From: Candidatus Saccharimonadota bacterium
Lineage (GTDB): Bacteria > Patescibacteriota > Gracilibacteria > UBA4473
Assembly: GCA_030429505.1 (NCBI GenBank)
Contig: JAUIFI010000001.1
Coordinates: forward strand, 120,001-152,000
Direction: 5' to 3'
Length of the DNA: 32,000 nt
Shown here in pieces: positions 1 through 29,719 of this stretch; the first letter of the stretch is position 1, and every line of letters starts with the position of its first letter. The notes beneath the pieces are model-generated. The model searched no databases, was not told where the DNA came from, and worked only from the letters and a program-made list of their open reading frames with translations. The position numbers and the translations under genes are program-made.

Positions 1-43
1 CAAACAAAGTCTCTAAAAAAGCATTAGTTTGTGAACAATTTTT

Positions 44-72
44 TTGACCAAAAAAAAGATTTTTTCTATGCT
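44..72 (+). promoter_or_regulatory. candidate sigma70-like promoter upstream of the LCP gene
   Basis: TTGACC (44-49), 17-nt spacer, TATGCT (67-72). The ATG at 81 lies 8 nt after the -10 hexamer and has no Shine-Dalgarno. Chance matches are likely in AT-rich DNA. Confidence 0.3.
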
Positions 73-80
73 ACTTACCG

Positions 81-1427
81 ATGAAATTCAAAGTTAAGAA
101 GATACAAACACGCTCCACAAGAGTAAAAAATAAATGGTGGCGAAAAATAGTTCGAAACCTTGGTCCTAAAAAATCACTAACTCTGGCTATTTTACTAGCG
201 TTTGTTCTCTTGTTATGGGGAGGAAGTGCTCTCGTGAAATCAGATTTGTTTTTAACCAAAGCAACAAGAAGCATTTTTTCATTTGGACCTCTAAAAAAAG
301 ATAAACACGGACATACCAATATACTATTTTTGGGAGTCGCAGGAGAAGGCTCTGAGGGCGGTAATTTGTCCGACTCTATTATGATTGCCTCCTTTAATCC
401 AGCTGAACCAACTGTATCATTCCTAAGTTTACCTCGCGATCTCTTTGTCTCCTCTAAAGTTGGAGATCGAAAAGTGAATGAAATCTATGCTGCTGCCAAG
501 TTTAAGTACAAAGATGACAAACGAGGTTTAAGCATCATGAAAGATGCCATATCTAATTTTACAGGGGTTGATATTCATTACGGAGCTGTTGTGAATTTTA
601 AAATATTTGAAGAACTCGTAGATGCTATGAATGGTATCGATATTTTTGTTCCTGAAGATATAGCAGATCCTTTTTATCCAGATGAAAATTATGGATATCA
701 AACCTTTGTTGTTCGAAAAGGGCTTCAAAAATTCGATGGATCTACCGCGCTTAAATACGCTCGAAGTCGAAAGACATCTTCTGATTATGATAGAGCACGA
801 AGACAACAAGACCTCCTTCTCGCTATCCGAAAACGCGCTGAAGAATTATCTTTGCTTACAGATTTTGACAAGCTCAGACAATTTTATGATATTTACAAAT
901 CAAATTTAACTACAGATCTAGGCATAACCGAATTAATTGCTCTCGCTAAAATGGCTATGACGATTGATTATAGTAATGCTTTAGTCGCAGTCCTCAATAA
1001 TGATCCAACTAAAAAAGGAGGATTCCTTTATACCCCAGCGAAGGAATTTTATGGTGGTCAATTTGTCCTCTTGCCTGAAAATCTAAAAGATACACAACTG
1101 TTTATGGACTTAGTTTTGATTCACCCAGAGGTCTTTCTGGAAAATGCCCAACTTTCAATACTCAATGGTTCGAAAATGGATGGAAAAGCTACACAAACCG
1201 CTCATCGACTTAGAAGACTCGGACTACATGTCATTGAAGTTGCAAACTATGATTCAGATACTCCAGTATTTCGAACGTTTCTCAAAAATTTTACCACCGA
1301 AGAAAAACCAAGAACGCTTAAGATTCTCCAACATATGTTTAATATCGAGACAATCGAAGATATTCCCGAAGAATACATTCCAGAAGGAAATCTCATTGAT
1401 TATCAGATGGTCATAGGAACCAACTAA
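81..1427 (+). CDS. LytR-CpsA-Psr (LCP) family cell-envelope glycopolymer ligase with C-terminal LytR_C-like domain
   Basis: 448-aa ORF with an N-terminal TM segment (LTLAILLAFVLLLWGG). LCP core motifs: HTNILFLGVAGEG, SDSIMIASFNP, SLPRDLFV, NEIY, ALKYARSRK, DYDRARRQQ. C-terminal LSILNGSKMDGKATQTAHRLRRLGLHV resembles LytR_C. Confidence 0.88.
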   Translation: MKFKVKKIQTRSTRVKNKWWRKIVRNLGPKKSLTLAILLAFVLLLWGGSALVKSDLFLTKATRSIFSFGPLKKDKHGHTNILFLGVAGEGSEGGNLSDSIMIASFNPAEPTVSFLSLPRDLFVSSKVGDRKVNEIYAAAKFKYKDDKRGLSIMKDAISNFTGVDIHYGAVVNFKIFEELVDAMNGIDIFVPEDIADPFYPDENYGYQTFVVRKGLQKFDGSTALKYARSRKTSSDYDRARRQQDLLLAIRKRAEELSLLTDFDKLRQFYDIYKSNLTTDLGITELIALAKMAMTIDYSNALVAVLNNDPTKKGGFLYTPAKEFYGGQFVLLPENLKDTQLFMDLVLIHPEVFLENAQLSILNGSKMDGKATQTAHRLRRLGLHVIEVANYDSDTPVFRTFLKNFTTEEKPRTLKILQHMFNIETIEDIPEEYIPEGNLIDYQMVIGTN

Positions 1428-1465
1428 AGCTTGATTTTTCGAAGAAAAAACAGAATCATAAAGAT

Positions 1466-1879
1466 ATGAAGAGATGGCACTATTGCTTATTAGTACTCAC
1501 AATGTTTGTCTTGCCCTTGGCACAAGCACAACCTCCGCCAAAAGTAACTCGATACGAAGCTCCACCAATTCTCAATGGTAATATTTTACCTGGATCATCA
1601 AACGAACAGTTTGTAAATGATCCTATTGTCGGAACTCGCTACATCACACAACGTCTAGCTCCAGGACTTGCGAACTGGTTAATAGTAGCATTACTAGCTT
1701 TATCTGTCGGAGTGTTGATTGTAGGAGGAGTAATGATGATGATAAGTTCTGGAGAATCTGATACGAAACAAAAAGCAAAGACTATGATTATATGGGCCCT
1801 TGTAGGAGTAGTGATTGGCATTATATCCTTTGCTATTGTGAATTTTGTGATTGGCATTGATTTTGAACTTATAGAATGA
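1466..1879 (+). CDS. small secreted/membrane protein, VirB2/TrbC-like ('T4SS pilin'-like) two-helix hairpin
   Basis: 137 aa. Signal peptide MKRWHYCLLVLTMFVLPLAQAQ, followed by PPPK. C-terminal hairpin: LIVALLALSVGVLIVGGVMMMISSGESDTKQKAKTMIIWALVGVVIGIISFAIVNFVIG. Size and topology match VirB2/TrbC-type pilins. Confidence 0.7.
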   Translation: MKRWHYCLLVLTMFVLPLAQAQPPPKVTRYEAPPILNGNILPGSSNEQFVNDPIVGTRYITQRLAPGLANWLIVALLALSVGVLIVGGVMMMISSGESDTKQKAKTMIIWALVGVVIGIISFAIVNFVIGIDFELIE

Positions 1880-2727
1880 AATACATAATTTGGATAACCG
1901 TCTTAATGATTTCTGTGATGAGCGGAAACCTCATCTATGCTCAGGTGCAGTTAGGAGATCTGGATAGTGCAGGAACCCCAGATGAAATAAAATTTAGTAC
2001 TGTGGAAAATGCACTTTTTCCAACTTGGCGAGGAGCCACAGCCTTGGAAAATATGCGAAAAAAAATAGAAGCAAATCTCAATGGACCAGATAGCCAAGAA
2101 TTGGAAGGATTAAAAAAGAGATTAGAAGCTGCTCAAAAAACACTAGAGCCGAAGCAGAAAGTTTTTGATAGTCTCAAAAAAGATGTAGATGAAAAAAATG
2201 AAAAACTTCAACAATATTATGAAGAAGTACGATTTACTAGAGTAGAGCTCGATGCTTGTCATGGTGGTAGCGGTCCTTGTGTAGATGAGACAGAAGATCA
2301 CAAGCAAGCATTAGCCAGAATGACAGACCAATTAAGAAAAGTAAATTTTGCCAAAGAAGATTTAGAAGATGCCAGGGTAGATATGCTTCCTGAACAAACA
2401 AATGTCGAGCGAATCAACCAAGAAATCGATGATTTCTTTCTTGAATGGCATGACTTTAATATACCAGTAGATGGAGTGATTGGGAGAAATGATGACGGAT
2501 TTTTTTTACTTCAATACATTCCGCGAATTATTGATATTTTAATTAAAATAATCGCGCCACTTTTTATGGGAATGATGATATATGCTGGAATTAGGTTCCT
2601 CTATGCTGGAGATGATGAAGAAGAGCTTTCCAAGGCCAAAGATTTTTTCCTTTACGCGTTTATTGGCATTATATTTGTCCTTTTTAGTTACTCTATACTT
2701 AAAGCAGTATATTTTCTTTTGGCATGA
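1876..2727 (+). CDS. secreted coiled-coil protein with C-terminal pilin-like hairpin anchor
   Basis: 283 aa. ATGA overlap with the upstream ORF (1876-1879). Signal-like N-terminus MKYIIWITVLMISVMSGNLIYAQ. Charged heptad-like middle (KKRLEAAQKTLEPKQKVFDSLKKDVDEKNEKLQQYYEE). C-terminal hairpin IIAPLFMGMMIYAGIRFLYAGDDEEELSKAKDFFLYAFIGIIFVLF. Confidence 0.7.
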   Translation: MKYIIWITVLMISVMSGNLIYAQVQLGDLDSAGTPDEIKFSTVENALFPTWRGATALENMRKKIEANLNGPDSQELEGLKKRLEAAQKTLEPKQKVFDSLKKDVDEKNEKLQQYYEEVRFTRVELDACHGGSGPCVDETEDHKQALARMTDQLRKVNFAKEDLEDARVDMLPEQTNVERINQEIDDFFLEWHDFNIPVDGVIGRNDDGFFLLQYIPRIIDILIKIIAPLFMGMMIYAGIRFLYAGDDEEELSKAKDFFLYAFIGIIFVLFSYSILKAVYFLLA

Positions 2728-3779
2728 AAAAGTTCTGTATAGGTTTTCTAAGTTTTATATTCCTCTTTGGAGGAATGGTTTTAGCAAAAGATGTGACACC
2801 TTACGATCTTGGAAAAGCTATGCGAGACGTACAACAAAAAAAATTCTATATCCAAGTTGAATTACCACAGCATCTACCAGGGATAGATGAGCAAAGTCTT
2901 CAAGGCAATGCCTCTGATGTAACTGTATTTCTTCAAAGATTTGCAAATGGTATTGCTGGTATTGCCGGATCCATTGCTGTTATATTTATCATTATAAATG
3001 CTTTTGGTATGGCTGGATCGGCGGGAAATACAGAAGCCATAGAAAAGGCCAAAAAAGGACTTATTTGGTCTATCGCAGGACTAGTTCTTATTATCATGGC
3101 TTATGTAATAGTAAAAACCGTGCTTTCTCTCTCTTACTCAGGACAAGAAATAGTAGCAACCAAATGTAATGATGGCATTGATAATGATGGTGACGGATTC
3201 ATTGATACAGACGATATGGATTGTTTTAGAGAGTTTGATGATAGAATGGCATATGATCCAACGATCAATAGTGAATCAGGAGCAAAGACCGAATGTATAG
3301 ACGGTATTGATAATGGTGGTGACGGATATATTGATAATAATGACTTCAACTGCTGGAGAGACTTTGATGACCGGAGCACCTACGATCCAACGATCCAAGT
3401 AGAAGATCCAGTGCCACCGAAGCCAGTATTGGAAAATTTCTTAACGGAAAGATGGTATCTTCCTGAAGGAGTTCGTATTCCAGAGAGCCTTGGATTCTTT
3501 GATCGTGAATCTATCAAGGTTTGGAGTACAGGAGCTATTCCCGATGAATCAATAGACTTAGAAGAATGGGAAAAAGTTGGAGTAGATATTGAAAACATTG
3601 ATCAATTTTCAGAAGATGATTTCCAATACCTTCGAGATACATTTGGCACTTGGAAAGATAAAGCTTTACGTGAATTGCAGGCTCTATCTGAGTTAGAAAG
3701 AAAACAATTAAGAACAGCTCCACTTCAAAAAAGAAGAGACATAATACAAGAATTTAGAAAACGGAGACCACTCTCTTGA
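2724..3779 (+). CDS. pilin-like hairpin protein with two Cys-bracketed DNDGDG (calcium-binding-like) modules
   Basis: 351 aa. ATGA overlap at 2724-2727. Signal-like N-terminus. Hairpin IAGIAGSIAVIFIIINAFGMAGSAGNTEAIEKAKKGLIWSIAGLVLIIMAYVIV. Then KCNDGIDNDGDGFIDTDDMDCFREFDDRMAYDPTI and ECIDGIDNGGDGYIDNNDFNCWRDFDDRSTYDPTI. Acidic/charged C-terminal region. Confidence 0.72.
   Translation: MKKFCIGFLSFIFLFGGMVLAKDVTPYDLGKAMRDVQQKKFYIQVELPQHLPGIDEQSLQGNASDVTVFLQRFANGIAGIAGSIAVIFIIINAFGMAGSAGNTEAIEKAKKGLIWSIAGLVLIIMAYVIVKTVLSLSYSGQEIVATKCNDGIDNDGDGFIDTDDMDCFREFDDRMAYDPTINSESGAKTECIDGIDNGGDGYIDNNDFNCWRDFDDRSTYDPTIQVEDPVPPKPVLENFLTERWYLPEGVRIPESLGFFDRESIKVWSTGAIPDESIDLEEWEKVGVDIENIDQFSEDDFQYLRDTFGTWKDKALRELQALSELERKQLRTAPLQKRRDIIQEFRKRRPLS
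3165..3401 (+). repeat. in-frame tandem duplication (2 x 43 codons) encoding the CxDGxDNxGDGxxDxxDxxC...FDDRxxYDPTI module
   Basis: The Cys codon of copy 1 is at 3165 and of copy 2 at 3294, giving a 129-nt period. The two peptide copies align residue for residue. Confidence 0.8.
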
Positions 3780-3820
3780 GAAATATTGAATCACCTGATT
3801 CATCAAATAGCTTCCTAGAA

Positions 3821-4447
3821 ATGGAATTTAAAAAATTAGTCGAGCATCGTCGTTCTATCCACCACTTTCTTCCTGGAAAAAAAATATCAGATATAGAGTT
3901 TCAAAGCATTATAGAACTCGTTCGACTCACACCATCTGGTTACAATGCTCAACCATGGGAATTTATACTGATTCGAGAAGATAAGACGCTAGAAAAAATA
4001 CAACACATTGCTTACGATCAATCTCATGTCACTCAAGCTGGAAATATAGTAGTTGCATTAGGGAATACTGCTTTCGGGGAAGAAGAATGGGAAAGAATTT
4101 GTGCAGAATGGAAAAAATTCCGATCATTAAACACAGAAAAATTAGATGGTCTCAAAAGCTCTCTTACCAAAATTCGCAGTCTTCAGAAAAACAGAGAAAT
4201 GGTAATCCGTAATGGAGCCTTGGCTTGCATGACATTCCTTTATGCTACTGAATCTTTAGGCTGGAATACTTGTCCAATGATGGGATTTCGACAGTTAGAA
4301 CTTAAAAAACTCCTTCATATTCCTTCCAAAAAAATTCCACTCATGATGATAGCTCTTGGCAAAGCTGATCCAAACAAAAAAGATCAAAGACTCCCAAGGA
4401 AGTCCGTAGAGGAGATAGCATACTATGAAAAATATGGTGACAAATAA
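3821..4447 (+). CDS. nitroreductase family protein
   Basis: RRSIHHFLPGKKISD and TPSGYNAQPWEF motifs, about 208 aa. ATG at 3821 is preferred over the TTG at 3776 used by the ORF track. Confidence 0.8.
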   Translation: MEFKKLVEHRRSIHHFLPGKKISDIEFQSIIELVRLTPSGYNAQPWEFILIREDKTLEKIQHIAYDQSHVTQAGNIVVALGNTAFGEEEWERICAEWKKFRSLNTEKLDGLKSSLTKIRSLQKNREMVIRNGALACMTFLYATESLGWNTCPMMGFRQLELKKLLHIPSKKIPLMMIALGKADPNKKDQRLPRKSVEEIAYYEKYGDK

Positions 4448-4480
4448 GTCTCTAGATATCCTAAGTTCAATATTTTCTTT

Positions 4481-4556
4481 GTCATCCTGAACTTGTTTCA
4501 GGATCTTGAGAGTGTCCTATAGCAGTACAAAGATTCTGAAATAAATTCAGAATGAC
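4481..4556. repeat. nested palindromic intergenic element (two related 8-bp hairpins whose outer arms are also inverted repeats)
   Basis: Hairpin 1: ATCCTGAA(4484-4491) cttgt TTCAGGAT(4497-4504). Hairpin 2: ATTCTGAA(4533-4540) ataaa TTCAGAAT(4546-4553). Outer GTCAT(4481-4485) pairs with ATGAC(4552-4556). Only one copy occurs in this window. Confidence 0.55.
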
Positions 4557-4841
4557 AGGAAGTTTTCTTGGGAATATTTTTTTTGAGGTTTTTGGTTTGC
4601 AATTTTTTAGAAATCAATATCACAGGAGCGCCCCCGTTTATTAAACGAAGTTTTGATGAGCGTAGAGGGTAGTGACGACTATCCTTCCATCTAGTAAATT
4701 AGATGGATAGAAGAAGGCTCCAAACCTTCCTCAGCAAAAAGGCTATGATGTATGTATACACATGGTCTTTTTGTGGTTTTAGTATTGAGTTAGGATAACA
4801 TCAAAACAAGAAAAAATACCCTAGCTACCCGTCTATTTTCT

Positions 4842-5348
4842 CTACCCGCCTCCCATTAATTTTCGCTTCAACTCTTCCGCTTCTTCAACACTTCCACTTT
4901 CTTCTTCAGTTTCTTCTTGCTTGATGACCGCGATATTTCGTTCTTTTTCTCGTTCTGCTTTCAGTTTTGCTACATCTTCTGAAAACTCTTGCTCTAGCTC
5001 TGAAAACTTTTTTCGTTCTTCACGAAAAATAGAAAAAAGCTCATTAATTTGATCAATACTCAACCGAGGAATAGCGTCAATAACCCTGTTTTTTTCCTCC
5101 ATTGTCAACGATATGGAGCCTTCTAACAAATCTAAAAAATCCGCTTCATCAAACTGTGTGTTGGGATGAGGGGGAATGACAAATAAATGTTTATCCCTCT
5201 TGGGAAGACGACCAGTATCTCCAGAAGATGAAGCTTTTCCTGCGATAGACGAATCCTGAGAACCTCTTAAATCATCAGAAGACGAAGCCCCATCATCTCC
5301 TCCCGAATGAGATGAAAACTGGTCTTTCTGGATATTATCGTCAGACAT
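4842..5348 (-). CDS. hypothetical protein: acidic, disordered N-terminus plus a conserved helical domain
   Basis: 168 aa with an ATG start, 13 nt downstream of the rplU stop and so probably co-transcribed. The C-terminal half, FLDLLEGSISLTMEEKNRVIDAIPRLSIDQINELFSIFREERKKFSEL, is paralogous to ORF 8932-9264. Confidence 0.65.
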   Translation of the reverse strand: MSDDNIQKDQFSSHSGGDDGASSSDDLRGSQDSSIAGKASSSGDTGRLPKRDKHLFVIPPHPNTQFDEADFLDLLEGSISLTMEEKNRVIDAIPRLSIDQINELFSIFREERKKFSELEQEFSEDVAKLKAEREKERNIAVIKQEETEEESGSVEEAEELKRKLMGGG

Positions 5349-5361
5349 GGAAAGAAAAAAA

Positions 5362-5823
5362 TTAAGACTTTTTGGAGGTCTTTTTCACGGAGGCTGGTTT
5401 TTTCGTAGCAGGTTTCTTTACGATCGCTTTTTTCGAAGAAGTATTAGCAGGTGCTTTTTTTTCAGAAGCTTTTGGTTCAGCTTTTTTCGTAGCAGGCTTC
5501 AATGCTTTCTCATTTCCAATCTGGACAATCTCAATTACACTATAGTCTTGCCGATGTCCCAAAGTACGTCGGTACCGTTTTCTAGGCTTCATTTTGAATA
5601 CTCGAATTTTTTTCCCTCGCCCATGTTCTAGTACTTTTGCCTCAATCTTCAGTCCTTCAATAAAAGGAGTTCCAATCTGAAACTGACTTCCATCTTCTTC
5701 TGATACGAGCAAGGTTTCAAATTGTACCTTTTTTCCAACTTCGACATCAAGCTTATCAACTTCAATAGTCTCACCAACACTTACAAGGGCCTGATGGCCG
5801 CCAATTTTTGCGATTGCAATCAT
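5362..5823 (-). CDS. rplU: 50S ribosomal protein L21 with Lys/Ala/Pro-rich C-terminal extension
   Basis: MIAIAKIGGHQALVSVGETIEVDKL...KIRVFKMKPRKRYRRTLGHRQDYSVIEI is a typical L21 core. ATG at 5823 is preferred because the track start at 5862 is a TTG. Tail: KPATKKAEPKASEKKAPANTSSKKAIVKKPATKKPASVKKTSKKS. Confidence 0.92.
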   Translation of the reverse strand: MIAIAKIGGHQALVSVGETIEVDKLDVEVGKKVQFETLLVSEEDGSQFQIGTPFIEGLKIEAKVLEHGRGKKIRVFKMKPRKRYRRTLGHRQDYSVIEIVQIGNEKALKPATKKAEPKASEKKAPANTSSKKAIVKKPATKKPASVKKTSKKS

Positions 5824-5917
5824 GATATTCTGATAATAATCATTCGTCGGAGGTAAATACAAATTTACGCTTTATCCCGAACAAATAGAAAATACTTTCC
5901 CAATGTATCTAATTTTA

Positions 5918-7624
5918 CTACTTTGTCAATTCATCCGCAGGAACCGTATCCGTTTCTGCTGTGTTTTGTTCTGAAGAAAGTTGAGTAGAAGTATTTCCTT
6001 GCATGTGTTTTCTGGCCACCGCCAAGAAGTCAGCTCTTTTATTAATAAAGTATTCTCCATTTTCTTTTTCTTTTCCGGATAATTTATTAACACGTTGTCT
6101 TTCATGACCTTGGCTTATTTCTTCATCATGAAATAACTTTTCAAGTTTGGCATTTATATCAGCATCATCCTTCGGAAAATCATCACGACTTACGAGATAA
6201 GTTATGAGTTCTAAAGCCGGATCTTTAAGACTGTGTGCAAAAAACTTATCTACAATAAGTTTCATCGTATCTGTTCGTAAATTTTTATGTGTGACGAGTA
6301 GTTTTGACTGATCTCGATGAGCATAATGTTTTCCATAGAGATACATCTTACCGGCCATATAATGTAAGAAATTACCATCTGCGTGGGGAGAGTTAAGAAG
6401 TTCTCCAGGGAGAAAATTTCTTTGGTCATCTGCAACCCGTGTAAACATATAAGGATGTTTTAAGAAGTCTTTTTCTTTATCAGCTCCAGTTCCTTGGAAG
6501 AAAGATTTGGCTATTCCGAGAAGAAATTTAGGCGTCATGTTTTTATGATTGAGAGCATTTGCAGCATCCACACCAGAAATGCCCAAGTCATAATTCCAGA
6601 GATAAGTCAAAGCTTCAAATGGGGTGCTTTCATTCTCACATAAAGCCATTCTTATCCACGTACCATGTGCATGCTTTGCCGTGTCTAACAGAAAAGGAAC
6701 AGGCGTGCTTGTATTCCGGCAAACTGCTTGGAGTATTTTTCCCTTGGTCGTATTCATAAATACATTTTCATACTCGTGAAAATTTTTAAGGTTGGATTCG
6801 CTATTTTCATAGGGATCAATAACTTTTTTGCCTCCCTTGAGGTGGTTTTTAACAACATAATCAAAGAATATATCCCCAATTTTTTGAAGGTCCTTAGGCT
6901 TTGTGTTGGGATTATCTGCAATAGAAAGAAGAAGTTTTGCTTGTTCTTCATCCAGTATTGAAACATGTAAAGTATCCAAATTAATCTGTGCAAGCAAGAT
7001 GTCAATCTTCTCCACAGAGATATCACTTCGTGTAGCTAAGAGTGTATTTACAGCGGAAATGTTTCTCGAAAATAAAGCATCATATTGAGAAGAGGAAAGA
7101 TCTGACTTCTTAGCTAGCTGAGAGAGCATGCCAAACTCATTTGTATTGTTCTCTATAAAAGTATCTATGAATGAATTTTTTACATTATCAGGAATATGCT
7201 TATTTTTTAACAAGTGACCATGGAGAGAATCTCCAGGGTTCCATTCGTCATGGTTTCTCTTAGATGCCATGCTCTCCCAATCCCAAGACCCATCATCCTC
7301 ATTTGGAAGATTCGCAATGAGCATCCATAGCTCAGGAAGAGTGCATTTTTTGGCAAGTTCTTTCTTTCTATGAGTAGGGATTTCTCGAAGAATAGTATGG
7401 TTTTTGACGGCAATAGCTCCTAATGCTTGAATATCGAACGTATTAATATATTGATTGAGTTTTCCTAAATCTTTGTGAAATTTACCTGATGTTAATATCC
7501 GAGTTCCATCGTTTTTAAGAACATAAGCTTGATCAGCGAAAAGTTGTGAATTGGAAACAAGTTCATTCAGAACAGTTTCGCTTTGTGGGGGAAGATGTTC
7601 ATTGTAAAGGACTAAATACCTCAC
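5918..7624 (-). CDS. alpha-solenoid (HEAT/LRV-like) repeat protein; N-terminus uncertain, reading frame open up to 7768
   Basis: 568-aa ORF from a GTG. Repeat-like units: DEDVRYLVLYNEHLP, ADNPNTKPKDLQKI, CRNTSTPVPFLLDTA, CENESTPFEALTYL, HKNMTPKFLLGIA. No signal peptide or TM segment. See the finding on the in-frame TAA at 7769-7771. Confidence 0.7.
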   Translation of the reverse strand: MRYLVLYNEHLPPQSETVLNELVSNSQLFADQAYVLKNDGTRILTSGKFHKDLGKLNQYINTFDIQALGAIAVKNHTILREIPTHRKKELAKKCTLPELWMLIANLPNEDDGSWDWESMASKRNHDEWNPGDSLHGHLLKNKHIPDNVKNSFIDTFIENNTNEFGMLSQLAKKSDLSSSQYDALFSRNISAVNTLLATRSDISVEKIDILLAQINLDTLHVSILDEEQAKLLLSIADNPNTKPKDLQKIGDIFFDYVVKNHLKGGKKVIDPYENSESNLKNFHEYENVFMNTTKGKILQAVCRNTSTPVPFLLDTAKHAHGTWIRMALCENESTPFEALTYLWNYDLGISGVDAANALNHKNMTPKFLLGIAKSFFQGTGADKEKDFLKHPYMFTRVADDQRNFLPGELLNSPHADGNFLHYMAGKMYLYGKHYAHRDQSKLLVTHKNLRTDTMKLIVDKFFAHSLKDPALELITYLVSRDDFPKDDADINAKLEKLFHDEEISQGHERQRVNKLSGKEKENGEYFINKRADFLAVARKHMQGNTSTQLSSEQNTAETDTVPADELTK

Positions 7625-7768
7625 ATCTTCATCAGGGTCATGTATTAAGGTCAGTAAAACCTCAGGGTCTGTAGAAGTTTGTGCTAGATTTTTTCTTTCA
7701 AAAACTGATTTTTGAGCATAGATATATTCGTCCTCAGAGGATTTTTGTTCAGAAGATTCTCCTGAAAC

Positions 7769-8929
7769 TTATTGATCTGTATTTTCCGTGTCATTTTCTT
7801 GAGTATCAACTGAAGTATCCTCACTATCTGTTTCATTGTGTCCCATTTCACTAGTTGATTCATCAACTTGATTCTCTGGAGATGAATCATCTTCAAGTTC
7901 AGAAGACTCATTTATTGGAAGTTCTTCTTCCAGTGTCGTATTCGAATCTGACTCTTCACCGTTATTAGCTACAGACTCGTCTTCTATTACTTGTTGATCA
8001 TTTTTCAGCGGTTCTCCTGAAATAGGAGTAATTGATTCAGAACGAGCTTGTTCGGGAGTATCAGCATCTACAGTTTTAGCTGGAGCAGAAGGATCATCTG
8101 TTTTGCTCGGAGCATCCACGTAAATAATCGTAAAATAATACCCCTCACGACCACTTCCATCCGGAGCTTTTCCTTTTGTAAAAGCAACTCCAACATGAGT
8201 CAGAGATTGTATCATAGCAGTAGTATGACCAGTATGACTTGTGAGAATTTGAAAAGCTTCATCAACAGTTTGCCCCCAAGAAGTACTTTCTATAGCATTA
8301 GTCCCGTCCAGAGCAGCCATAGCTTGAGTCCTTCTCTCAGAACGATCTTTTGTGTGCCATTTTCCTTCTGCAGCGAGAGAGTCACTTTGTTGCTGCGCTA
8401 AATCAGAAAGATCTTGATTGAGTTCTAATGGTCCTTGAGCCATTCCTGAACGATAATCATTTATGTTTTTGAGAAAAGCCTCTCGAGAAGGAACTTCTAA
8501 CTGTTCCTGACTTTCGTGCACATTATCTGATTCAGATGCAAAGGATTGGATTTTTATTTGATCTTCAACCTTAAGTTCTTCCGGAGCAATAGCATCGAGG
8601 GGAGTATCTGTATCAGAATTTAAAAGAGATTTAACATCTTCGGGTAACTCCTCTCGACCTAAAATGCCATTTAAGACGGAGTTAATGTTTTGAGCAAAAG
8701 GGGTATTGCATGTTTGTACGTTTCGTTCTGCACACTGCCTTGCAAGTGGACATGTGCTTTCTGATGAGGTTATAGTCATACGAAAGACTTGTTCTGCTTG
8801 CTGACTACAATTTGGAGTTTCAACTTCCGGAACAACATCAGGAACATCAGAAGCCGTTTCTGCGTTTTGAAACAAAACACAGCCACCTTGTGAGAAGAAA
8901 AGCCCGGACACATGCCAAAGATTCTTCAT
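7769..8929 (-). CDS. secreted CAP/SCP-like domain protein with long acidic C-terminal tail
   Basis: 386 aa with a weakly hydrophobic N-terminus. Bacterial CAP-like core: NDYRSGMAQGPLELNQDLSDLAQQQSDSLAAEGKWHT...SWGQTVDEAFQILTSHTGHTTAMIQSLTHVGVAF...YYFTIIYV. The tail is D/E/S/T-rich. Confidence 0.65.
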   Translation of the reverse strand: MKNLWHVSGLFFSQGGCVLFQNAETASDVPDVVPEVETPNCSQQAEQVFRMTITSSESTCPLARQCAERNVQTCNTPFAQNINSVLNGILGREELPEDVKSLLNSDTDTPLDAIAPEELKVEDQIKIQSFASESDNVHESQEQLEVPSREAFLKNINDYRSGMAQGPLELNQDLSDLAQQQSDSLAAEGKWHTKDRSERRTQAMAALDGTNAIESTSWGQTVDEAFQILTSHTGHTTAMIQSLTHVGVAFTKGKAPDGSGREGYYFTIIYVDAPSKTDDPSAPAKTVDADTPEQARSESITPISGEPLKNDQQVIEDESVANNGEESDSNTTLEEELPINESSELEDDSSPENQVDESTSEMGHNETDSEDTSVDTQENDTENTDQ

Positions 8930-8931
8930 AT

Positions 8932-9264
8932 TTATAGTAAGGCATTAATTGAGCTTTCTAGTTCCTGAAGCGTCGCTTCATCTTCTTTTTTGCTTTGAAC
9001 TTCTTGCTCTTCTGTCTGACCTTTGATTTGCGTTTGAAGAAAGTGAGTAAACTCACTCAAGAAATCAGGATGCTTTTCGATATAAGCGGTCAAAAGTTGA
9101 TGTTGTTTGTGATACGCCTTTTGCAAAAGACGTCCTATTATTTCCAGTTTTTCGTCAGAAAAAGTATCTATTCCATCCACAATTTTTTCCCGAACTTCAT
9201 CAGTAATGATAAAAAGTCCTCTGAGAATCTCTAAAATATCTTGTTTTGTTTTATCTTGCCCCAT
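8932..9264 (-). CDS. small helical hypothetical protein (paralog of the C-terminal half of ORF 4842-5348)
   Basis: 110 aa with an ATG start. Its stop lies 2 nt before the next start. ILEILRGLFIITDEVREKIVDGIDTFSDEKLEIIGRLLQKAYHKQHQL aligns with the domain in the 168-aa protein. Confidence 0.65.
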   Translation of the reverse strand: MGQDKTKQDILEILRGLFIITDEVREKIVDGIDTFSDEKLEIIGRLLQKAYHKQHQLLTAYIEKHPDFLSEFTHFLQTQIKGQTEEQEVQSKKEDEATLQELESSINALL

Positions 9265-9270
9265 CCTCTC

Positions 9271-9279
9271 ATTATACCA
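9271..9279 (-). promoter_or_regulatory. extended -10 promoter element (TGgTATAAT), predicted leaderless transcript for ORF 8932-9264
   Basis: The minus strand reads GTGGTATAATGAGAGG-ATG. A perfect TATAAT (9276-9271) is preceded by TGn. Only 6 nt separate the hexamer from the ATG at 9264. Confidence 0.45.
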
Positions 9280-9340
9280 CGAAAAATCAATCTATACAAG
9301 GGTTCCAAGTGATTATATTCGTCATAAAAAAGGCATGATT

Positions 9341-11296
9341 TTAATAAGGCTTTTGTTTGACCCCATTAATGGTTATATTCCCATGAGGATCATAATTACA
9401 GACCCAAACAATACCTTTTGCATTTCCACCTATCCTCTCATCATAATACTCGCCACACGTTTGTTTTCCGCAACCAACTTTTTTTGTATCTTTCCAAACC
9501 ACTTGAGTGTAATGTCCGACTGTATTCAATGGACCTCTTTCTCCTGGGGAAAGAGGTCTCCTTAAAATCCTTTCGTTAGCAGATTTACACGAGTTATTCC
9601 AGACATATCTATTGGAGGCATAGTCATAGCATTCTTTTTCAGATACCCATCCATCAGTAGCTCCATGAGCATCCACAATACTTGAAAATGACATTGATGG
9701 ACTGCCAATTCCCCAAGCCAAATTTTCTCCCCAATTTTTTTCTTTTCTTCCCAAGGTACTCCGATGATGATCACTATTATTAGCTCGATCAAATATCTCA
9801 CAGTTTTTGTTATCCTTAAGAAAATCAGCCCACTCTTGAGCATAAGTCGCAATATTCGCATCCCAAACTAAGCTCCCAACGCCTACATCTCTTCGAGCAT
9901 CATTATGAAACCTAACTATATCTTGAATTTCTTCATTTGATAATTTAGATCCTGAAGAGGGTGGGGAAGTGTCGTCATGTTCATCACCACATTCTGTCTT
10001 GGTACATTTCCCTTCGCCATCGCATTCGATCTCAATCTCTTCTCCGCCGCTACTTTCAGAACCATTATCACTATCATCTCCACCAAAAGGGTCTGGACCG
10101 GCAATACCATCTAAAGATTTATCGGGATCGGGGATGTCGTTATCGGAGTCGTCTCCTCCAAATGGATCAGGACCGGCAATGCCCCCATTTTCAAGGGGAT
10201 CTTCTCCTTCTTCAGTCGCACAGCTGCCATTCTTTTTACAGACTTCTTTAACACATTTTGTACCATCACATACGGTTTTTTCAGTTCGAGCACCTTCTTC
10301 AGGGTCTGGATCTGGAATTTCTTTTGGAAGTGCACATGATTGAGGTTCAGGTTCGGGGGGAGACATATCTTCTCCTTCACTATCAATAGTTTTGTCATAA
10401 TTTCCGCTATCATCTAGACAATCAGAGTCACCAGCATCGACTTCACCATCATTGTTATTATCTTTACCATCTTGGCATTGAGTCGTAGCCAAAGATTCGT
10501 ATACAGAATCATCAAGCTCAGGTTCACCATCATCTAGTACAGAAGCGTAGAGAGGAAACATAAACCGAAACGCAGTTTTTTCACTTCCACCACCTTTACA
10601 TCCTGGATCATCCATATCGATCAAACCATCCCCATCATTATCCATTCCATCGCTACATTCATGAGGCGTACCAAAGAAACCCGGGTTAATACTCTCCAAA
10701 AGTAAACCAATCAAAAAAAGTAAAATAATACTGGCAATGGCCTTAAAAATGTCATCTTTTGCCTCAGTCACAGATTCCGAACGAGCCCCCCCAGTCATGA
10801 TTTGAATCCCTCGAATAACAATAATCAGAACAGCAATAATTCCAATGATTGAAGCTGCATATCGATAAAAAACAGATACCAGGTTTCCGATCAACTCCAT
10901 TCCCGTTCTTCCCCGAATGGTTTTGTATTTCCCCCACGCTTCTTTGAGTTCGACACAATATCCTACATCTGTAAAACCGGCGGAAGCAGGGTCGATACAC
11001 TTGGTCGTACTTGCCCACAAGTCAAAATCAGCCGGTGGATGATCTCCATCAAACGTATAAAAATCATCAAAAGCTTTATCAAGATAAGCTACATATTCAT
11101 CATAAACTCTCTTTCTATCTCTTCCTTCAGCCGTACTGGTATCATGTGGTGGCTTAAATTCTTCCCATACAGTTTGATCTGTTTTACTAATTATAAACAT
11201 AGCCTTTGGCGGAGGTGGTGGGCGTTGAGCATCTCCCTCCGGTAATAACCAGAGAAAAGCCACTAAGAAGGAAAGAAGTATGAAAAATTTCTTCAT
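9341..11296 (-). CDS. multidomain surface protein: signal peptide, pilin-like hairpin, DNDGDG modules, acidic repeats, C-terminal CAP/SCP/PR-1 domain
   Basis: 651 aa from the ATG at 11296 (the track start at 11311 is a TTG). Signal peptide MKKFFILLSFLVAFLWLLPEGDAQ, followed by RPPPPPK. Hairpin IIGIIAVLIIVIRGIQIMTGGARSESVTEAKDDIFKAIASIILLFLIGLLL. Modules ECSDGMDNDGDGLIDMDDPGC and QCQDGKDNNNDGEVDAGDSDC. Two copies of GIAGPDPFGGDDSDN. CAP motifs FHNDARRDVGVGSLVWD, GHYTQVVWKDTKKVGCG, VWVCNYDPHGN. Confidence 0.82.
   Translation of the reverse strand: MKKFFILLSFLVAFLWLLPEGDAQRPPPPPKAMFIISKTDQTVWEEFKPPHDTSTAEGRDRKRVYDEYVAYLDKAFDDFYTFDGDHPPADFDLWASTTKCIDPASAGFTDVGYCVELKEAWGKYKTIRGRTGMELIGNLVSVFYRYAASIIGIIAVLIIVIRGIQIMTGGARSESVTEAKDDIFKAIASIILLFLIGLLLESINPGFFGTPHECSDGMDNDGDGLIDMDDPGCKGGGSEKTAFRFMFPLYASVLDDGEPELDDSVYESLATTQCQDGKDNNNDGEVDAGDSDCLDDSGNYDKTIDSEGEDMSPPEPEPQSCALPKEIPDPDPEEGARTEKTVCDGTKCVKEVCKKNGSCATEEGEDPLENGGIAGPDPFGGDDSDNDIPDPDKSLDGIAGPDPFGGDDSDNGSESSGGEEIEIECDGEGKCTKTECGDEHDDTSPPSSGSKLSNEEIQDIVRFHNDARRDVGVGSLVWDANIATYAQEWADFLKDNKNCEIFDRANNSDHHRSTLGRKEKNWGENLAWGIGSPSMSFSSIVDAHGATDGWVSEKECYDYASNRYVWNNSCKSANERILRRPLSPGERGPLNTVGHYTQVVWKDTKKVGCGKQTCGEYYDERIGGNAKGIVWVCNYDPHGNITINGVKQKPY
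10064..10183 (-). repeat. in-frame direct repeat (75-nt period) encoding GIAGPDPFGGDDSDN twice
   Basis: Copy at 10139-10183 and copy at 10064-10108, both on the minus strand inside ORF 9341-11296. Confidence 0.8.
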
Positions 11297-11300
11297 TGTT

Positions 11301-12335
11301 TTACGAAGCAATAAAGATTAAAGATAATACAAACTGGACAATAATAAGTCCCAGATAGGCAATTAAAATACCAAAGATCGTATAAATCACGATGTTCTTT
11401 CCCTTTGTCAGCTGACTGTCATCACCTCTCGACGTAATCATTATAACTGCCCCAATAATCAAAAGTAGCACTCCCAATGTTCCAAATATCTGAGTAAAAA
11501 GGCGAATCACCCGACCGAAAATACTTACCTGGTCCTTCCCGTCATCTAAAAGAGTTAACTTATGCTCGTTTCCTACACTCAACTTTACATTAACATCAAA
11601 GTTTGAGGTGGTCTGTCCCAAAAGCTTGAGACTGGCATCTTGCATCTCAACAAGGCTTTCATGAAGGCATTTTCCAAACGTCGAATCAACATAGTCCTTG
11701 TTGTTCGACAACAAGGCTGTGTAGGCTACAATGAGTTTGAGCTTTGCTTGATGTTCAAGCATTTCATCAGAAGCAGAGTTTGCTTGTCCCCATAAATCTG
11801 TTCCAGAGGATGTATCATCTCCAATAAGCCCTTCTAAATTAGTACGAACTGTTGGAGCGTGAATGGGACGGACGACGAGAGGATCTATTTCATTCGTCAC
11901 AAAATCCTCTCGCTTGCTAAGACCTTTCGTACGAGCAGCTGGATCTCCATAAGAGATCGTATGAGGGACGTCCGGATAAGCCCAGATATCAAGTCTGGTA
12001 AGCGTATCAGGATCTTTGTTTTTCCGTTTAGTATTTATAAAAGCGTCAACCTCTCTGGTAACTCGACCAAGGGCATCTTGTATTTCAGGAATCTCCCAGT
12101 TTTTTTTCTCTTTGCTAAACCTTAAAAGGGCCGCATCATACATGAGCTTTTTTTTACATTGTTCTTTAGAAAGGTCTTTCTTTAGGTTTTGGCATTGAGT
12201 CCATTCAGCATTATTTATATCCAAATCAACTCCTCCAGCCGCACAGGGTCTAGAAGTTGTTTGAGCAAAAACTGCCTCAGTAAAAAACATTACTGAAAAC
12301 AAAAAGAAAAAAACTAATGTAAAACGCTTCTGCAT
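11301..12335 (-). CDS. secreted protein with C-terminal pilin-like hairpin anchor
   Basis: 344 aa. Signal peptide MQKRFTLVFFFLFSVMFFTEAVFAQ. Ectodomain of unknown fold. C-terminal hairpin IFGTLGVLLLIIGAVIMITSRGDDSQLTKGKNIVIYTIFGILIAYLGLIIVQFVL. Its stop is 4 nt before the next gene's ATG. Confidence 0.75.
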   Translation of the reverse strand: MQKRFTLVFFFLFSVMFFTEAVFAQTTSRPCAAGGVDLDINNAEWTQCQNLKKDLSKEQCKKKLMYDAALLRFSKEKKNWEIPEIQDALGRVTREVDAFINTKRKNKDPDTLTRLDIWAYPDVPHTISYGDPAARTKGLSKREDFVTNEIDPLVVRPIHAPTVRTNLEGLIGDDTSSGTDLWGQANSASDEMLEHQAKLKLIVAYTALLSNNKDYVDSTFGKCLHESLVEMQDASLKLLGQTTSNFDVNVKLSVGNEHKLTLLDDGKDQVSIFGRVIRLFTQIFGTLGVLLLIIGAVIMITSRGDDSQLTKGKNIVIYTIFGILIAYLGLIIVQFVLSLIFIAS

Positions 12336-12354
12336 AAAATATTCAACTGAAATC

Positions 12355-12363
12355 AGTATAACA
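12355..12363 (-). promoter_or_regulatory. extended -10 element (TGtTATACT) upstream of the minus-strand pilin-like/CAP operon
   Basis: The minus strand reads TTTGTTATACTGATTTCAGTTGAATATTTT-ATG, with 19 nt between the hexamer and the ATG at 12335. No Shine-Dalgarno. Confidence 0.4.
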
Positions 12364-12385
12364 AAGCTCCAAAGAAGGGGAAATA

Positions 12386-13114
12386 TTAATTAAATCGTTC
12401 TCGAAATATTTGGTCTTTATGTATTCCCTGCGAAAGCAAAATCTGTTCTACTGATTGCACCATATTGCCATTTCCACAAATATAAAATTCTGTCTGGTCA
12501 TCATAATCTTCTGCCTTTAAAAATTCAGTAATTCGACAAGGCGATCCGTAAGGACCAAGCTTGTGAGAATCAAGTTCTCGAGAAAGACCAAGTTTGATGT
12601 TTAATTTTTTACTCCACGTTTCTAGCTCATCCAGATATGCCAAATGCTTGAGATCTTTTCCTCCATATAAAAGTGTCATCGACCGAGGAATATCTGCTTG
12701 AGCTTCATGCAAAATCATGGAACGAAATGGGGCAATGCCTGTGCTCGTGGCACAGAAAACTAACTTAACATCTTTCTTATCTGACAAACCAAAATGACCA
12801 AAAGGACCTTTAAAGGGAAAACAGTCTCCTATTTCCACTTCATTCCAAATATTGGAAGCTGTCCCTCCTGAAATTAAACGGACCACAAACTCAATCTCCT
12901 TTTCAATCGGACTTGAAGCGATTGAGTAGGATCTCCAAGCTTTATCCGTAAATTGAAGCGACAAAAATTGTCCGGGCTTAAAAGACAAGGGACCAGTAAG
13001 TTCCGTTTTCCCATCTAAAGACAGAGCTCCATCGATTGTAAAACGAAATTTTTTCGTATCACAAGCAACATCTTGTGCTAAAGTCAGTCGAAGATTTCCC
13101 TGAAAAATATTCAT
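12386..13114 (-). CDS. ferredoxin-NADP reductase-family flavoprotein (FAD/NAD(P)-binding oxidoreductase)
   Basis: 242 aa. FNR-family motifs: PGQFLSLQF, WRSYSIASSP (RxYS), GPFGHF, ATSTGIAPFRSM, FYICGNGNMV. ATGA overlap with the upstream ferredoxin gene. Confidence 0.85.
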   Translation of the reverse strand: MNIFQGNLRLTLAQDVACDTKKFRFTIDGALSLDGKTELTGPLSFKPGQFLSLQFTDKAWRSYSIASSPIEKEIEFVVRLISGGTASNIWNEVEIGDCFPFKGPFGHFGLSDKKDVKLVFCATSTGIAPFRSMILHEAQADIPRSMTLLYGGKDLKHLAYLDELETWSKKLNIKLGLSRELDSHKLGPYGSPCRITEFLKAEDYDDQTEFYICGNGNMVQSVEQILLSQGIHKDQIFRERFN

Positions 13115-13371: not shown

Positions 13372-13397
13372 AATATCCAATATACTCGCTCAAAATA

Positions 13398-20132: not shown

Positions 20133-20142
20133 GCAAGGGAGT

Positions 20143-29710: not shown

Positions 29711-29719
29711 GAGAAGAAG

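Follow-up and report, generated by a model that had tools for sequence, protein, structure and literature searches.

Patescibacteria depend on host cells. Of 3035 assemblies from this group, 2417 contain VirB4, and the patescibacterial protein is nested within the MPF-FATA class, a class that also includes archaeal systems. The T4SS pilin domain is the commonest domain in freshwater-specific protein clusters. Among the 1948 assemblies with both a pilin gene and virB4, the two are close together in 1135, and in the class Gracilibacteria the T4SS genes are mostly scattered (4.7% of the VirB3 homologues are near virB4). The T4SS and its pilin array are essential in the one Patescibacteria species tested; in Southlakia epibionticum ML1 an essential six-gene pilin array lies inside the T4SS cluster, and in TM7x virB2 is expressed. 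In 383 Patescibacteria assemblies, 2-11 VirB2-like genes form arrays whose paralogues are divergent, sharing 25% identity on average (Quinonero-Coronel et al. 2025). Arrays of VirB2 paralogues in Bartonella and Anaplasma have been proposed to diversify host contact. Fusions of pilin hairpins to outer domains are not discussed in the published accounts of Patescibacteria pilin arrays consulted here.

The genome analyzed here is a contig of 1,023,206 bp, of which a stretch of 32 kb, referred to below as the window, was covered by the searches for T4SS genes. The hairpin genes of the window form two arrays, O1-O2-O3 on the plus strand and O5-O4 on the minus strand (Table 1). The definition of Quinonero-Coronel 2025 (2-11 pilin genes, in tandem or one gene apart, with low mutual identity) applies to them, as the first comprises three coupled genes, the second two genes separated by 4 nt, and the pairwise identity among the five modules is 16-30%. 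Arrays of such genes were already described in 2023-2025, and the window locus adds one more example. The three coupled ORFs and the two further paralogues on the other strand of the original prediction were found where it had placed them; the sequence itself shows the ATGA overlaps of start and stop codons at 1876 and 2724, and the peptide stretches that it quoted match the translations exactly. A TTG at 11311, upstream of the ATG, is an alternative start of O4.

Table 1. Hairpin genes, their modules and domains, and neighboring genes in the 32-kb window
Feature	Coordinates	Strand	Description
LCP (LytR-CpsA-Psr) gene	81..1427	+	38 nt upstream of O1; PF03816 LytR_cpsA_psr, 103.1 bits
O1	1466..1879	+	137-aa ORF; sole pilin-sized member
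O1 hairpin module	1640..1873	+	aa 59-136; loop SSGESDTKQKAKT
O2	1876..2727	+	283-aa ORF; start overlaps O1 stop (ATGA)
O2 hairpin module	2512..2724	+	aa ~213-283; loop AGDDEEELSKAKD
O3	2724..3779	+	351-aa ORF; start overlaps O2 stop (ATGA)
O3 hairpin module	2937..3131	+	aa ~72-136; loop SAGNTEAIEKAKKG
O3 acidic double-disulfide repeats, two tandem	3159..3395	+	directly after hairpin; NF033662
O5	11301..12335	-	344-aa ORF; first gene of minus-strand pair
O5 hairpin module	11304..11504	-	aa ~278-344; loop SRGDDSQLTKGKN
O4	9341..11296	-	651 aa from ATG at 11296
O4 hairpin module	10676..10870	-	aa ~143-207; loop GGARSESVTEAKDD
O4 acidic disulfide repeat	10607..10659	-	directly after hairpin; inverted repeat I1
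O4 CAP (cysteine-rich secretory protein / SCP) domain	9392..9913	-	PF00188, 70.1 bits, E 3.7e-19
Second CAP-domain protein	7769..8929	-	386 aa; two genes downstream of O4; PF00188, 41.9 bits

Hydropathy analysis revealed the same features in all five proteins, in line with the predicted signal-peptide-like starts and two-helix module: (i) the N-terminus combines a basic n-region with a hydrophobic h-region and an A-x-A-like site, with predicted cleavage at AQA↓Q, IYA↓Q, VLA↓K, GDA↓Q and VFA↓Q, (ii) the signal peptide is followed by exactly two strongly hydrophobic helices, and (iii) the loop between them ends in KAK (three proteins), EAK or KGK. The loop lysine is nearly invariant in 82 family sequences and is kept in all five window hairpins, and the invariant glycine of helix 2 is kept in four of them and is a serine in O4. 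In the AlphaFold2 model of O1, the helices comprise residues 59-93 and 98-136, with a pLDDT of ~90 or higher over most of the hairpin. The suggestion that the module makes up the whole mature product of the 137-aa ORF does not hold, since mature O1 has ~115 aa and the module is only its last ~80 aa. The net charge of the loop is negative in two of the five proteins; thus, the positive-inside rule leaves the topology of the hairpin unfixed.

All five proteins match PF18895 (T4SS_pilin), the family to which they had been assigned, with 26.6, 31.2, 40.7, 26.3 and 26.9 bits for O1 to O5, respectively; four reach the gathering score of 26.6 bits, and O4 misses it by 0.3. The membership of O4 is rescued by the 46-52% identity of its hairpin to hairpins in L001 and L006, two Peregrinibacteria arrays. 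When an HMM was trained on the five modules, they scored 84-100 bits with it (E 1e-25 to 1e-30), a result that is circular because the same five are its training sequences. The best non-member among the 311 other six-frame ORF fragments of the window has an E value of only 0.05; therefore, the window holds exactly five copies, the number originally claimed. Against family members in other contigs, the O1-O4 modules show 33-52% identity (E 1e-10 to 1e-20), and the best matches of the O5 module show 30-37% (E ~1e-10). The five-module profile retrieves 54,939 representative proteins at E<=1e-3; a broader family profile retrieves 223 proteins, and of the 120 matches listed nearly all already carry PF18895. 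The best-scoring family members among the matches listed are mostly 120-160 aa long. Pilin size (~100-160 aa), a typical feature of the family rather than a formal PF18895 criterion, is found in O1 (137 aa) but not in O2-O5 (283-651 aa). Re-scanning of the 148 top-scoring representatives revealed 2-13 hairpins per polypeptide, most commonly three, joined by linkers with a median of 12 aa. Judged by these profile and identity comparisons, the five window genes belong to the Patescibacteria VirB2-like pilin family.

The hairpin is combined with different outer parts in each protein. In O1, the signal peptide (1-21/22) is followed by a ~40-aa proline-rich linker and the hairpin. The other four carry 120-560 aa of extra outer-domain sequence (190-563 aa if the whole mature region outside the hairpin is counted). 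O2 and O5 have the hairpin at the C-terminus (PF18895 matches at aa 220-277 and 276-336, respectively). In O2 it is preceded by a signal peptide and a ~190-aa acidic coiled-coil outer domain with weak matches to coiled-coil families at aa 55-190; in O5 it is preceded by a signal peptide and a ~250-aa outer domain, for which single-sequence AlphaFold2 modeling was uninformative (pLDDT 44.7). O3 consists of a signal peptide, a ~50-aa juxtamembrane segment, the hairpin and a 215-aa acidic C-terminal outer domain. Its repeats have the motif CxDGxDNDGDGxxDxxDxxC with a DDRxxYDPTI tail, score 47.8 bits with NF033662 (cut-off 41), and are also visible as a direct DNA repeat (D1, 108 nt, 73% identity, spacing 129 nt). 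In O4, a signal peptide and a ~120-aa outer domain precede the hairpin, which is followed by acidic disulfide repeats (NF033662, 40.1 bits against the same cut-off), acidic low-complexity repeats and a terminal CAP domain; this C-terminal part has 18 cysteines and a net charge of -54. The O4 repeat shares 77% DNA identity with the O3 repeat at 3163-3215, and thus O3 and O4 share a duplicated unit of hairpin and repeat. The acidic disulfide repeats are probably calcium-binding. Cysteine counts are even throughout (O1 0, O2 2, O3 4, O4 2+18, O5 4), all fused outer domains are acidic, and those flanking the hairpin reach 444 aa. No phage family (PHROG) matches the five proteins, save for a coiled-coil match on O2.

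Relatives in other contigs show how these architectures vary. Contig L002 is distant from the window (ribosomal protein L21 is only 62% identical) and keeps the gene order O1-O2-O3, ending inside the O1 orthologue. Identity to the L002 orthologues is 44% for O1 and 32% over 246 aa for O2, and the core of O3 is 59-61% identical to its counterparts in L002 and P0002, while its flanking domains are unrelated. Overall, the L002 hairpins are 44-61% identical to those of the window, and N- or C-terminal domains have been gained, lost or replaced. Conservation of gene order over this distance argues that O1-O3 are real, selected genes. L015 fuses the hairpin to the peptidoglycan-binding domain PG_binding_1, and in P0159 two neighboring array genes are joined into one, a short linker replacing the signal peptide of the second. 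In three other contigs, ~100-136-aa pilins that are 33-45% identical to the O1, O2 and O3 hairpins lie beside T4SS genes: VirB4, PrgI and two VirB6 in L017, VirB6 in L018, and PrgI and TrbL_3 in L007.

Comparison with described systems revealed the closest resemblance to the Patescibacteria arrays of PF18895, with which the window proteins share the family, the Sec signal peptide with a two-helix hairpin, and a monoderm host with a small genome. Both sets are tandem, tightly spaced and divergent (16-30% identity in the window against the published mean). However, the window arrays are not beside virB4, virB6 or prgI, and four of their five members have large outer domains, whereas the described pilins have ~100-160 aa. 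Classical TrbC/VirB2 proteins (PF04956; Agrobacterium VirB2, RP4 TrbC) likewise pair a signal peptide with two hydrophobic helices linked by a short polar loop, O1 is similar to them in overall size, and some relatives of the window family match both Pfam models. The PF04956 threshold is 27.9 bits; O3 scores 19.6 bits (E 1e-3), the other four give no match, and hhalign against an MPF_T VirB2 alignment gives a probability of 4%. Every VirB2 locus compared has an adjacent virB1, virB3 or virB4, in contrast to the window arrays; the classical hosts are diderm whereas this one is monoderm, and the window locus shows no sign of cyclisation partners.

Among solved structures, Foldseek ranked the Aeropyrum pernix conjugation pilus 8dfu, one of the archaeal conjugation and DNA-import pilins, as the best match of the O1 model. 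The alignment covers 82 columns with 22% identity and a TM-score of 0.53 on the target, but with E=1 and a probability of 0.57 the match lacks significance. A search of the sequences of solved structures gave no pilin match. The 80-position two-helix model of the Mycoplasma ICE Mbov_0395 pilin-like family (NF045849), also a monoderm T4SS component, aligns along its entire length with O1, O3 and the L015 member, with scores below its cut-off of 40 bits (O1 32.2, O3 33.9, O2 18.2, L015 member 38.1); the mycoplasma proteins are located inside integrative conjugative elements, unlike the window genes. The Bartonella and Anaplasma arrays show the same tandem amplification and divergence of pilin genes, but they belong to diderm T4SS loci, are pilin-sized and lack fused domains. 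Minor pilins and tip adhesins of type IV pili provide a functional analogy only: they combine a conserved hydrophobic assembly module with variable outer domains, and several paralogues are encoded together, as in the window. Type IV pilins differ in fold and export route, since the window proteins have two helices, Sec-type leaders and no class III motif.

Pfam and NCBIfam searches of the large ORFs of the window found no VirB4, VirB6, VirD4, PrgI or secretion ATPase, which extends to the whole 32 kb the claim that no T4SS gene is adjacent. The combination of virB4, prgI/virB3, virB6 and trsD near pilins, which marks a Patescibacteria T4SS cluster, is likewise missing from the window. Its only ATPase-related genes, encoding DnaB (22286-23701) and V/A-type ATPase subunits (29363-31834), are far from the arrays. 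The LCP assignment of the gene upstream of O1 was confirmed, but its link to the array is unsupported beyond this one locus; we treat it as context only.

We propose that O1-O3 and O5-O4 are orphan pilin arrays of a ~1-Mb, probably Peregrinibacteria-like genome, whose products are exported by Sec, inserted as hairpins, displayed and assembled by a T4SS; we give this reading a probability of roughly 0.55. Sec would export each precursor and signal peptidase I would cut it, as suggested by the n/h/AxA structure of the signal peptides. The two helices would then enter the membrane as a hairpin whose ends both face outward and whose short loop, with its nearly invariant lysine, is cytoplasmic, an orientation suggested by topology logic and by natural fusion proteins. 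With both ends outside, the parts fused before or after the hairpin (the coiled coil, acidic disulfide repeats, CAP domain and further domains) would therefore be displayed on the cell surface. CAP domains are domains of secreted proteins. Together with the even cysteine counts, the acidity, the PG_binding_1 fusion and P0159, the CAP domain supports an outside location of the fused domains. The ATGA overlaps would provide coupled, roughly equimolar synthesis of O1-O3, after which the hairpins would associate side by side, as the polypeptides with 2-13 hairpins support. In the last and least certain step, a Patescibacteria-type T4SS (VirB4, VirB6, PrgI) encoded elsewhere would use this membrane pool to build a pilus-like or envelope-spanning structure, with O1 as the structural subunit and the domain-bearing paralogues as minor subunits for host contact, their outer parts being exchanged in the course of evolution. 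The frequencies of VirB4 and of pilin genes near virB4 among Patescibacteria make a T4SS elsewhere in the genome likely a priori. Such a T4SS would probably assemble the hairpins.

The original prediction viewed the hairpin as a generic anchor with variable ectodomains and not as part of a canonical conjugation machine. Variable outer domains are well supported by L002 and L015, but the lack of T4SS genes nearby does not warrant the second conclusion, because unlinked pilins are common, Gracilibacteria T4SS genes are scattered, VirB4 is widespread, and the identity to T4SS-linked pilins is 33-45%. In a T4SS-independent version, which we regard as a serious but less likely alternative, the hairpin would have been co-opted as a two-helix membrane anchor for a hetero-oligomer of fixed stoichiometry in the cytoplasmic membrane with variable outer domains, and no pilus would be formed. 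Consistent with this, both window arrays are far from T4SS genes, as are those of L015, L002, L001 and L006, which are also rich in outer domains; the ATGA coupling points to synthesis at about 1:1:1, the hairpin is flanked by outer domains as long as 444 aa, similarity to classical VirB2 is not significant, and hairpins are fused into single polypeptides in the 148 re-scanned representatives and, from adjacent genes, in P0159. These multi-hairpin proteins are compatible with both readings, as a filament strand could also contain fused hairpins as its consecutive subunits. Against the anchor reading, O1 lacks any cargo, genomes with VirB4 often carry unlinked pilin genes, and the window hairpins share their conserved positions with the small pilins of bona fide VirB4/PrgI/VirB6 clusters, to which they are 33-45% identical, so that no separate anchor subfamily is apparent. 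Several observations speak against a T4SS pilus: the 32 kb contain no T4SS gene, the resemblance to classical VirB2 is weak (PF04956 on O3 only, hhalign 4%, Foldseek E=1), equimolar coupling and multi-hairpin fusions suit a fixed-stoichiometry membrane complex at least as well, and all members but O1 are 2-5 times as large as known VirB2-type pilins. We know of no pilus built of such large subunits.

Partnership with type IV pili, in which the hairpin proteins would serve that machinery, and not a T4SS, as accessory or platform components, was considered because in L006 4 nt separate a PilT/PilU ATPase gene (TIGR01420, 461 bits; cut-off 319) from the start of the five-gene array that follows it, prepilin-type genes (GFTLxE motif) lie 1-3 kb from the L001 and L002 arrays, and the O4 hairpin is closest to L001 and L006 members. 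Three loci show this adjacency, which could arise by chance where genomes are so compact, the family is elsewhere embedded in T4SS clusters, the signal peptides are of Sec type and not class III, and the window contains neither an ORF with the class III prepilin motif (G↓F-T-L-x-E) nor a T2SSE ATPase, which makes such a partnership improbable. Still more remote is an artefact of hydrophobic composition, with five unrelated membrane, secreted, pore-forming or holin-like proteins sharing two transmembrane helices: three of the five Pfam scores are at the threshold (26.3-26.9 bits), other transmembrane families reach 24 bits on O1, and many unrelated structures match helical hairpins. It is disfavoured by the loop motif common to all five, the E values against family members in other genomes, the gene order conserved in L002, the lack of any other window ORF at E<0.05 against the module profile, and the PHROG result.

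Under the T4SS reading, in which the proteins enter a T4SS-built structure, the outer domains would be obvious candidates for host recognition and targets for tagging or antibodies; if the proteins stay outside such a structure, the label 'T4SS pilin' on tens of thousands of proteins overstates what is known. Loci of this kind show that pilin hairpins can also be found at a distance from the machine genes and joined to large, rapidly exchanged surface domains; in relatives, several hairpins are combined in single proteins. More speculatively, and on balance unlikely in our estimate, the VirB2-type hairpin may in this lineage be a portable display module forming a locked membrane platform or composite filament of fixed stoichiometry with swappable host-contact domains and little or no conjugation-type machine. 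The host-contact set would comprise CAP, acidic disulfide repeats, coiled coil and peptidoglycan-binding domains, and ATGA coupling and the fusions of 2-13 hairpins suggest the fixed stoichiometry. If so, this would be a third route of surface anchoring in monoderms besides sortase and lipoproteins, and VirB2-like subunits would for the first time be seen with large folded domains. The second CAP gene is possibly in the same operon as O4 and is considered as context only.

Open reading frames, start-stop overlaps, hydropathy and HMM matches bear out the original prediction of three coupled genes (O1, O2 and O3) and two minus-strand paralogs (O5 and O4) encoding a shared hairpin. The ATG of O2 lies over the TGA of O1, and the ATG of O3 over the TGA of O2, each as ATGA; in the minus-strand pair, O5 is the upstream member and O4 starts 4 nt after it. 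All five proteins have several features in common: (i) a basic n-region at the N-terminus is followed by a hydrophobic core and an A-x-A-type site, (ii) exactly two strongly hydrophobic helices are separated by a spacer of 13-14 polar residues, and (iii) the interhelix loop terminates in KAK, EAK or KGK. The modules are 16-30% identical pairwise. An HMM built from them recovers all five at E values of 1e-25 to 1e-30, a circular result for its own training sequences, and detects no sixth copy at E < 0.05 among the 316 six-frame ORF fragments of the window. Normal-length ORFs in the window end in TAA (20), TGA (5) or TAG (3), as expected for the standard code. The UGA = glycine code used in some relatives was ruled out, since TGA terminates 5 of these 28 ORFs, including both in the ATGA overlaps.

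Coordinates of the hairpin genes and of other features in the window and in related loci
Feature	Source	Positions	Strand	Length (aa)	PF18895 (bits)	Identity to L002 (%)
O1	window	1466-1879	+	137	26.6	44
O2	window	1876-2727	+	283	31.2	32
O3	window	2724-3779	+	351	40.7	50
O5	window	12335-11301	-	344	26.9	
O4	window	11296 (ATG)-9341	-	651	26.3	
NF033662 repeat in O3	window	3159-3395	+			
NF033662 repeat in O4	window	10607-10659	-			
CAP/SCP domain in O4	window	9392-9913	-			
CAP/SCP protein	window	7769-8929	-	386		
Acidic protein 3' of rplU	window	4842-5348	-			
Its L002 counterpart	L002	3460-3888	-			
Second small acidic protein	window	8932-9264				
Protein with no family match	window	5918-7624	-	568		
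Protein with sub-threshold PP2C match	window	13398-15389	-	663		
HEAT-repeat protein	window	15510-17957	+	815		
Surface protein	window	20068-22215	+	715		
V/A-type ATPase subunit genes	window	29363-31834	-			
Adjacent hairpin genes fused in P0159	L001	851-1336, 1336-1737				
PG_binding_1-hairpin fusion (Ga0080064_1002130)	L015	4923-5900		325	52.9	
PilT/PilU gene 4 nt upstream of five-gene array	L006 (GCA_043810515.1)	6610-10528				
Prepilin-motif genes	L001	4533-5813				
Prepilin-motif genes	L002	4433-5808				

The gathering score of the Pfam model PF18895 (T4SS_pilin) is 26.6 bits, and several of the five scores lie at the noise boundary; thus, independent evidence of family membership matters. 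A search of 1.84 billion proteins with the module profile matched 54,939 representatives at E <= 1e-3. A second profile, broadened with relatives, recovered 223 proteins, and nearly all of the 120 matches listed carry the PF18895 label. In BLAST comparisons with members in other contigs, O1-O4 are 33-52% identical (E values of 1e-10 to 1e-20) and O5 is 30-37% identical (E about 1e-10). The AlphaFold2 model of O1, built from 82 sequences, has helices at residues 59-93 and 98-136, most of the hairpin having a pLDDT of about 90 or more. For O5, AlphaFold2 without an alignment reached a pLDDT of just 44.7, too low to identify the outer domain. The PF18895 matches, the BLAST relatives and this helical hairpin show that the T4SS_pilin family call was correct. 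That the hairpin resemblance is an artefact appears highly improbable, and a phage-family scan gave no relevant match for a holin or phage-protein reading.

The ties of the five proteins to classical VirB2 are weak. The TrbC model PF04956 matched only O3 (19.6 bits), comparison with seven verified MPF_T VirB2 proteins gave a non-significant hhalign probability of 4%, and a sequence search of solved structures with the module profile found no pilin, its sole match being a spurious one to a TATA-binding protein. Thus, given the PF18895 support, the five proteins are filed under that family, and "VirB2-like" denotes an accepted but distant superfamily relationship. The top Foldseek match was the archaeal Aeropyrum pernix conjugation pilus (8dfu), yet its E value was 1. 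The NCBIfam model for the Mycoplasma ICE "Mbov_0395 pilin-like conjugal transfer protein" scored 32-34 bits with O1 and O3 and 38 bits with the hairpin of the L015 fusion protein, below its cut-off of 40. Both this model and the archaeal pilin belong to MPF-FATA, the class in which patescibacterial VirB4 nests. The near-cut-off score and the archaeal structural match hint that the hairpin pilin arrived with the MPF-FATA system instead of being acquired from diderm T4SSs; its origin was left open by Quinonero-Coronel et al. 2025.

The novelty of pilin-like arrays was overstated in the original prediction. In the work of Wang et al. 2023, a series of pilin genes within the T4SS cluster of S. epibionticum proved essential. 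In their survey of 3,035 Patescibacteria genomes with the PF18895 model, Quinonero-Coronel et al. 2025 counted 1,948 assemblies holding VirB2-like genes together with VirB4; a pilin gene was near virB4 in 1,135 of them. The survey also reported 441 arrays, spread over 383 assemblies and made up of 2-11 genes each, whose identity averaged 25%. PF18895 is, moreover, the commonest domain among freshwater-specific protein clusters. The arrays in the window are thus an instance of an already described kind, and what merits a systematic survey is their orphan location, the fusion of hairpins to outer domains and the existence of multi-hairpin relatives.

The gene order is retained in L002, a locus from a Logan assembly, where three genes in the O1-O2-O3 order precede, as in the window, a convergent small gene and rplU. 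Only the hairpins and juxtamembrane segments of O1 and O3 can be aligned with their L002 counterparts. The L002 orthologue of O1 has an N-terminal coiled-coil domain of >160 aa, that of O2 an additional C-terminal domain of ~215 aa, and that of O3 an N-terminal insert rich in cysteines, with a coiled coil in place of the acidic repeats. Conserved hairpins with exchanged flanks are what had been predicted as a hairpin with variable outer domains. Other loci are either T4SS clusters with small pilins, namely L017 (VirB4, a 306-aa protein, PrgI, two VirB6 genes and three pilins), L018 (VirB6 and five pilins) and L007 (PrgI, TrbL_3 and six pilins), or unlinked arrays, namely L001 and L006, which adjoin metG, and the six-gene array L015. 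Both sets include close relatives of the window hairpins. L015 includes members of 566 and 454 aa and a fusion of PG_binding_1 (aa 54-110) with a C-terminal hairpin, whose sequence makes it a putative pilin-like hairpin tethered to peptidoglycan; a Fic-domain gene comes after the array. A metagenome scan with the full-length alignment of O3 and its relative P0002 found nothing, and its repetition with the hairpin core gave matches.

The outer domains of O1-O5 reach up to 444 aa, contain even numbers of cysteines and are acidic throughout (net charge -2 to -54). Directly C-terminal to the hairpin, O3 and O4 carry an acidic double-disulfide repeat (NCBIfam NF033662), common outside the hairpin family, e.g., in the Myxococcota proteins P0003-P0005. 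The two copies are 77% identical at the DNA level, and O3 contains an internal 129-nt tandem duplication. Apart from this similarity between the O3 and O4 coding sequences, no cassette, shufflon or inversion repeats linking the two arrays were found. CAP/SCP domains occur twice in one minus-strand gene string, in O4 and in a protein encoded two genes downstream. In other organisms, CAP domains bind lipids or sterols; tying them to lipid scavenging by a host-dependent bacterium would be pure speculation.

Re-scanning of 148 top-scoring representatives (P0009-P0156) revealed 2-13 tandem hairpins per single chain, e.g., eight in P0009 (820 aa) and three in P0023 (287 aa). Most often there are three (76 of 148, in a set ranked by score and hence favouring multi-hairpin proteins); linkers have a median length of 12 aa, and non-hairpin regions of up to 578 aa occur in some of these proteins. 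No mention of such "polypilin" proteins was found in the published accounts of Patescibacteria T4SS pilins that were consulted. In a further relative, P0159 (269 aa), two neighbouring L001 genes of a Peregrinibacteria MAG are naturally fused, with a linker of ~25 aa in place of the second signal peptide. Judged from its sequence, this fusion would be Rosetta-stone type evidence that array neighbours associate, with both hairpin ends outward.

Signal peptides, hairpins, coupling, conserved gene order, exchangeable flanks and homology to T4SS-linked pilins, all established computationally, are the basis of the model that we favour, T4SS-linked display, with a probability of about 0.55. The five proteins would be exported by Sec and cleaved by signal peptidase, and both ends of each hairpin would be located outside the cell. 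An external location of the fused domains is suggested by the even cysteine counts and uniformly acidic charge, the CAP domain of O4, which is typical of secreted proteins, the peptidoglycan-binding fusion in L015 and the linker in P0159. Neighbouring hairpins may pack side by side in defined ratios, given the multi-hairpin single chains and the ATGA coupling. As originally predicted, no VirB4, VirB6 or VirD4 gene lies near the arrays, and profile searches (Pfam, NCBIfam) found none of these, nor PrgI or a T2SSE ATPase, in the 32 kb window. Our best guess is that a T4SS encoded elsewhere in the genome organizes the hairpin proteins, because of the homology and the presence of VirB4 in about 80% of Patescibacteria assemblies.

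A T4SS-independent anchor or membrane platform, in line with the original prediction, is possible but less probable; the fixed-stoichiometry fusions and the long outer domains fit a platform no less well than they fit a classical pilus. Linkage of the arrays to a type IV pilus seems unlikely: among the Peregrinibacteria-like relatives, a PilT/PilU ATPase gene directly precedes the array in L006, and L001 and L002 have prepilin-motif genes at 1-3 kb from their arrays, but neither kind of gene is present in the window. The remaining probability, beyond display, platform, pilus and artefact, belongs to readings outside those named. A very divergent VirB6-like role, which profile searches alone could miss, is conceivable for one of three large unassigned window proteins: the 568-aa protein without a family match, the 663-aa protein with just a weak sub-threshold PP2C-phosphatase match, or the 815-aa protein, in which HEAT repeats at the C-terminus follow an N-terminal half that is long and very hydrophobic.

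The source genome is a single contig of 1,023,206 bp, and its closest named relatives are Candidatus Peregrinibacteria MAGs. Each window protein that was looked up forms a singleton at 90% identity in a collection of 15 billion proteins. The lineage is not sampled otherwise. In the present reading, O2 is absent from this collection, probably because of a different start call. Housekeeping genes in the window include the LCP gene, a nitroreductase gene, rplU, a class I aldolase gene, dnaB, murA, lgt and V/A-type (not F-type) ATPase subunit genes F, C/AC39, E and proteolipid K, the operon of which passes the window end. The 715-aa surface protein combines Big_1/invasin D3, further Ig-like and fn3 domains with one C-terminal transmembrane helix; it is adhesin-like, with an anchor unlike that of the hairpin proteins. 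Promoter and terminator scans of positions 1-13500 gave counts not above those in shuffled sequence, and neither Rfam matches nor tRNAs were found. The two small acidic proteins of the window are not paralogues. The one just 3' of rplU has no family match and is 66% identical to its counterpart in the distant L002 genome, being better conserved than L21 (62%).
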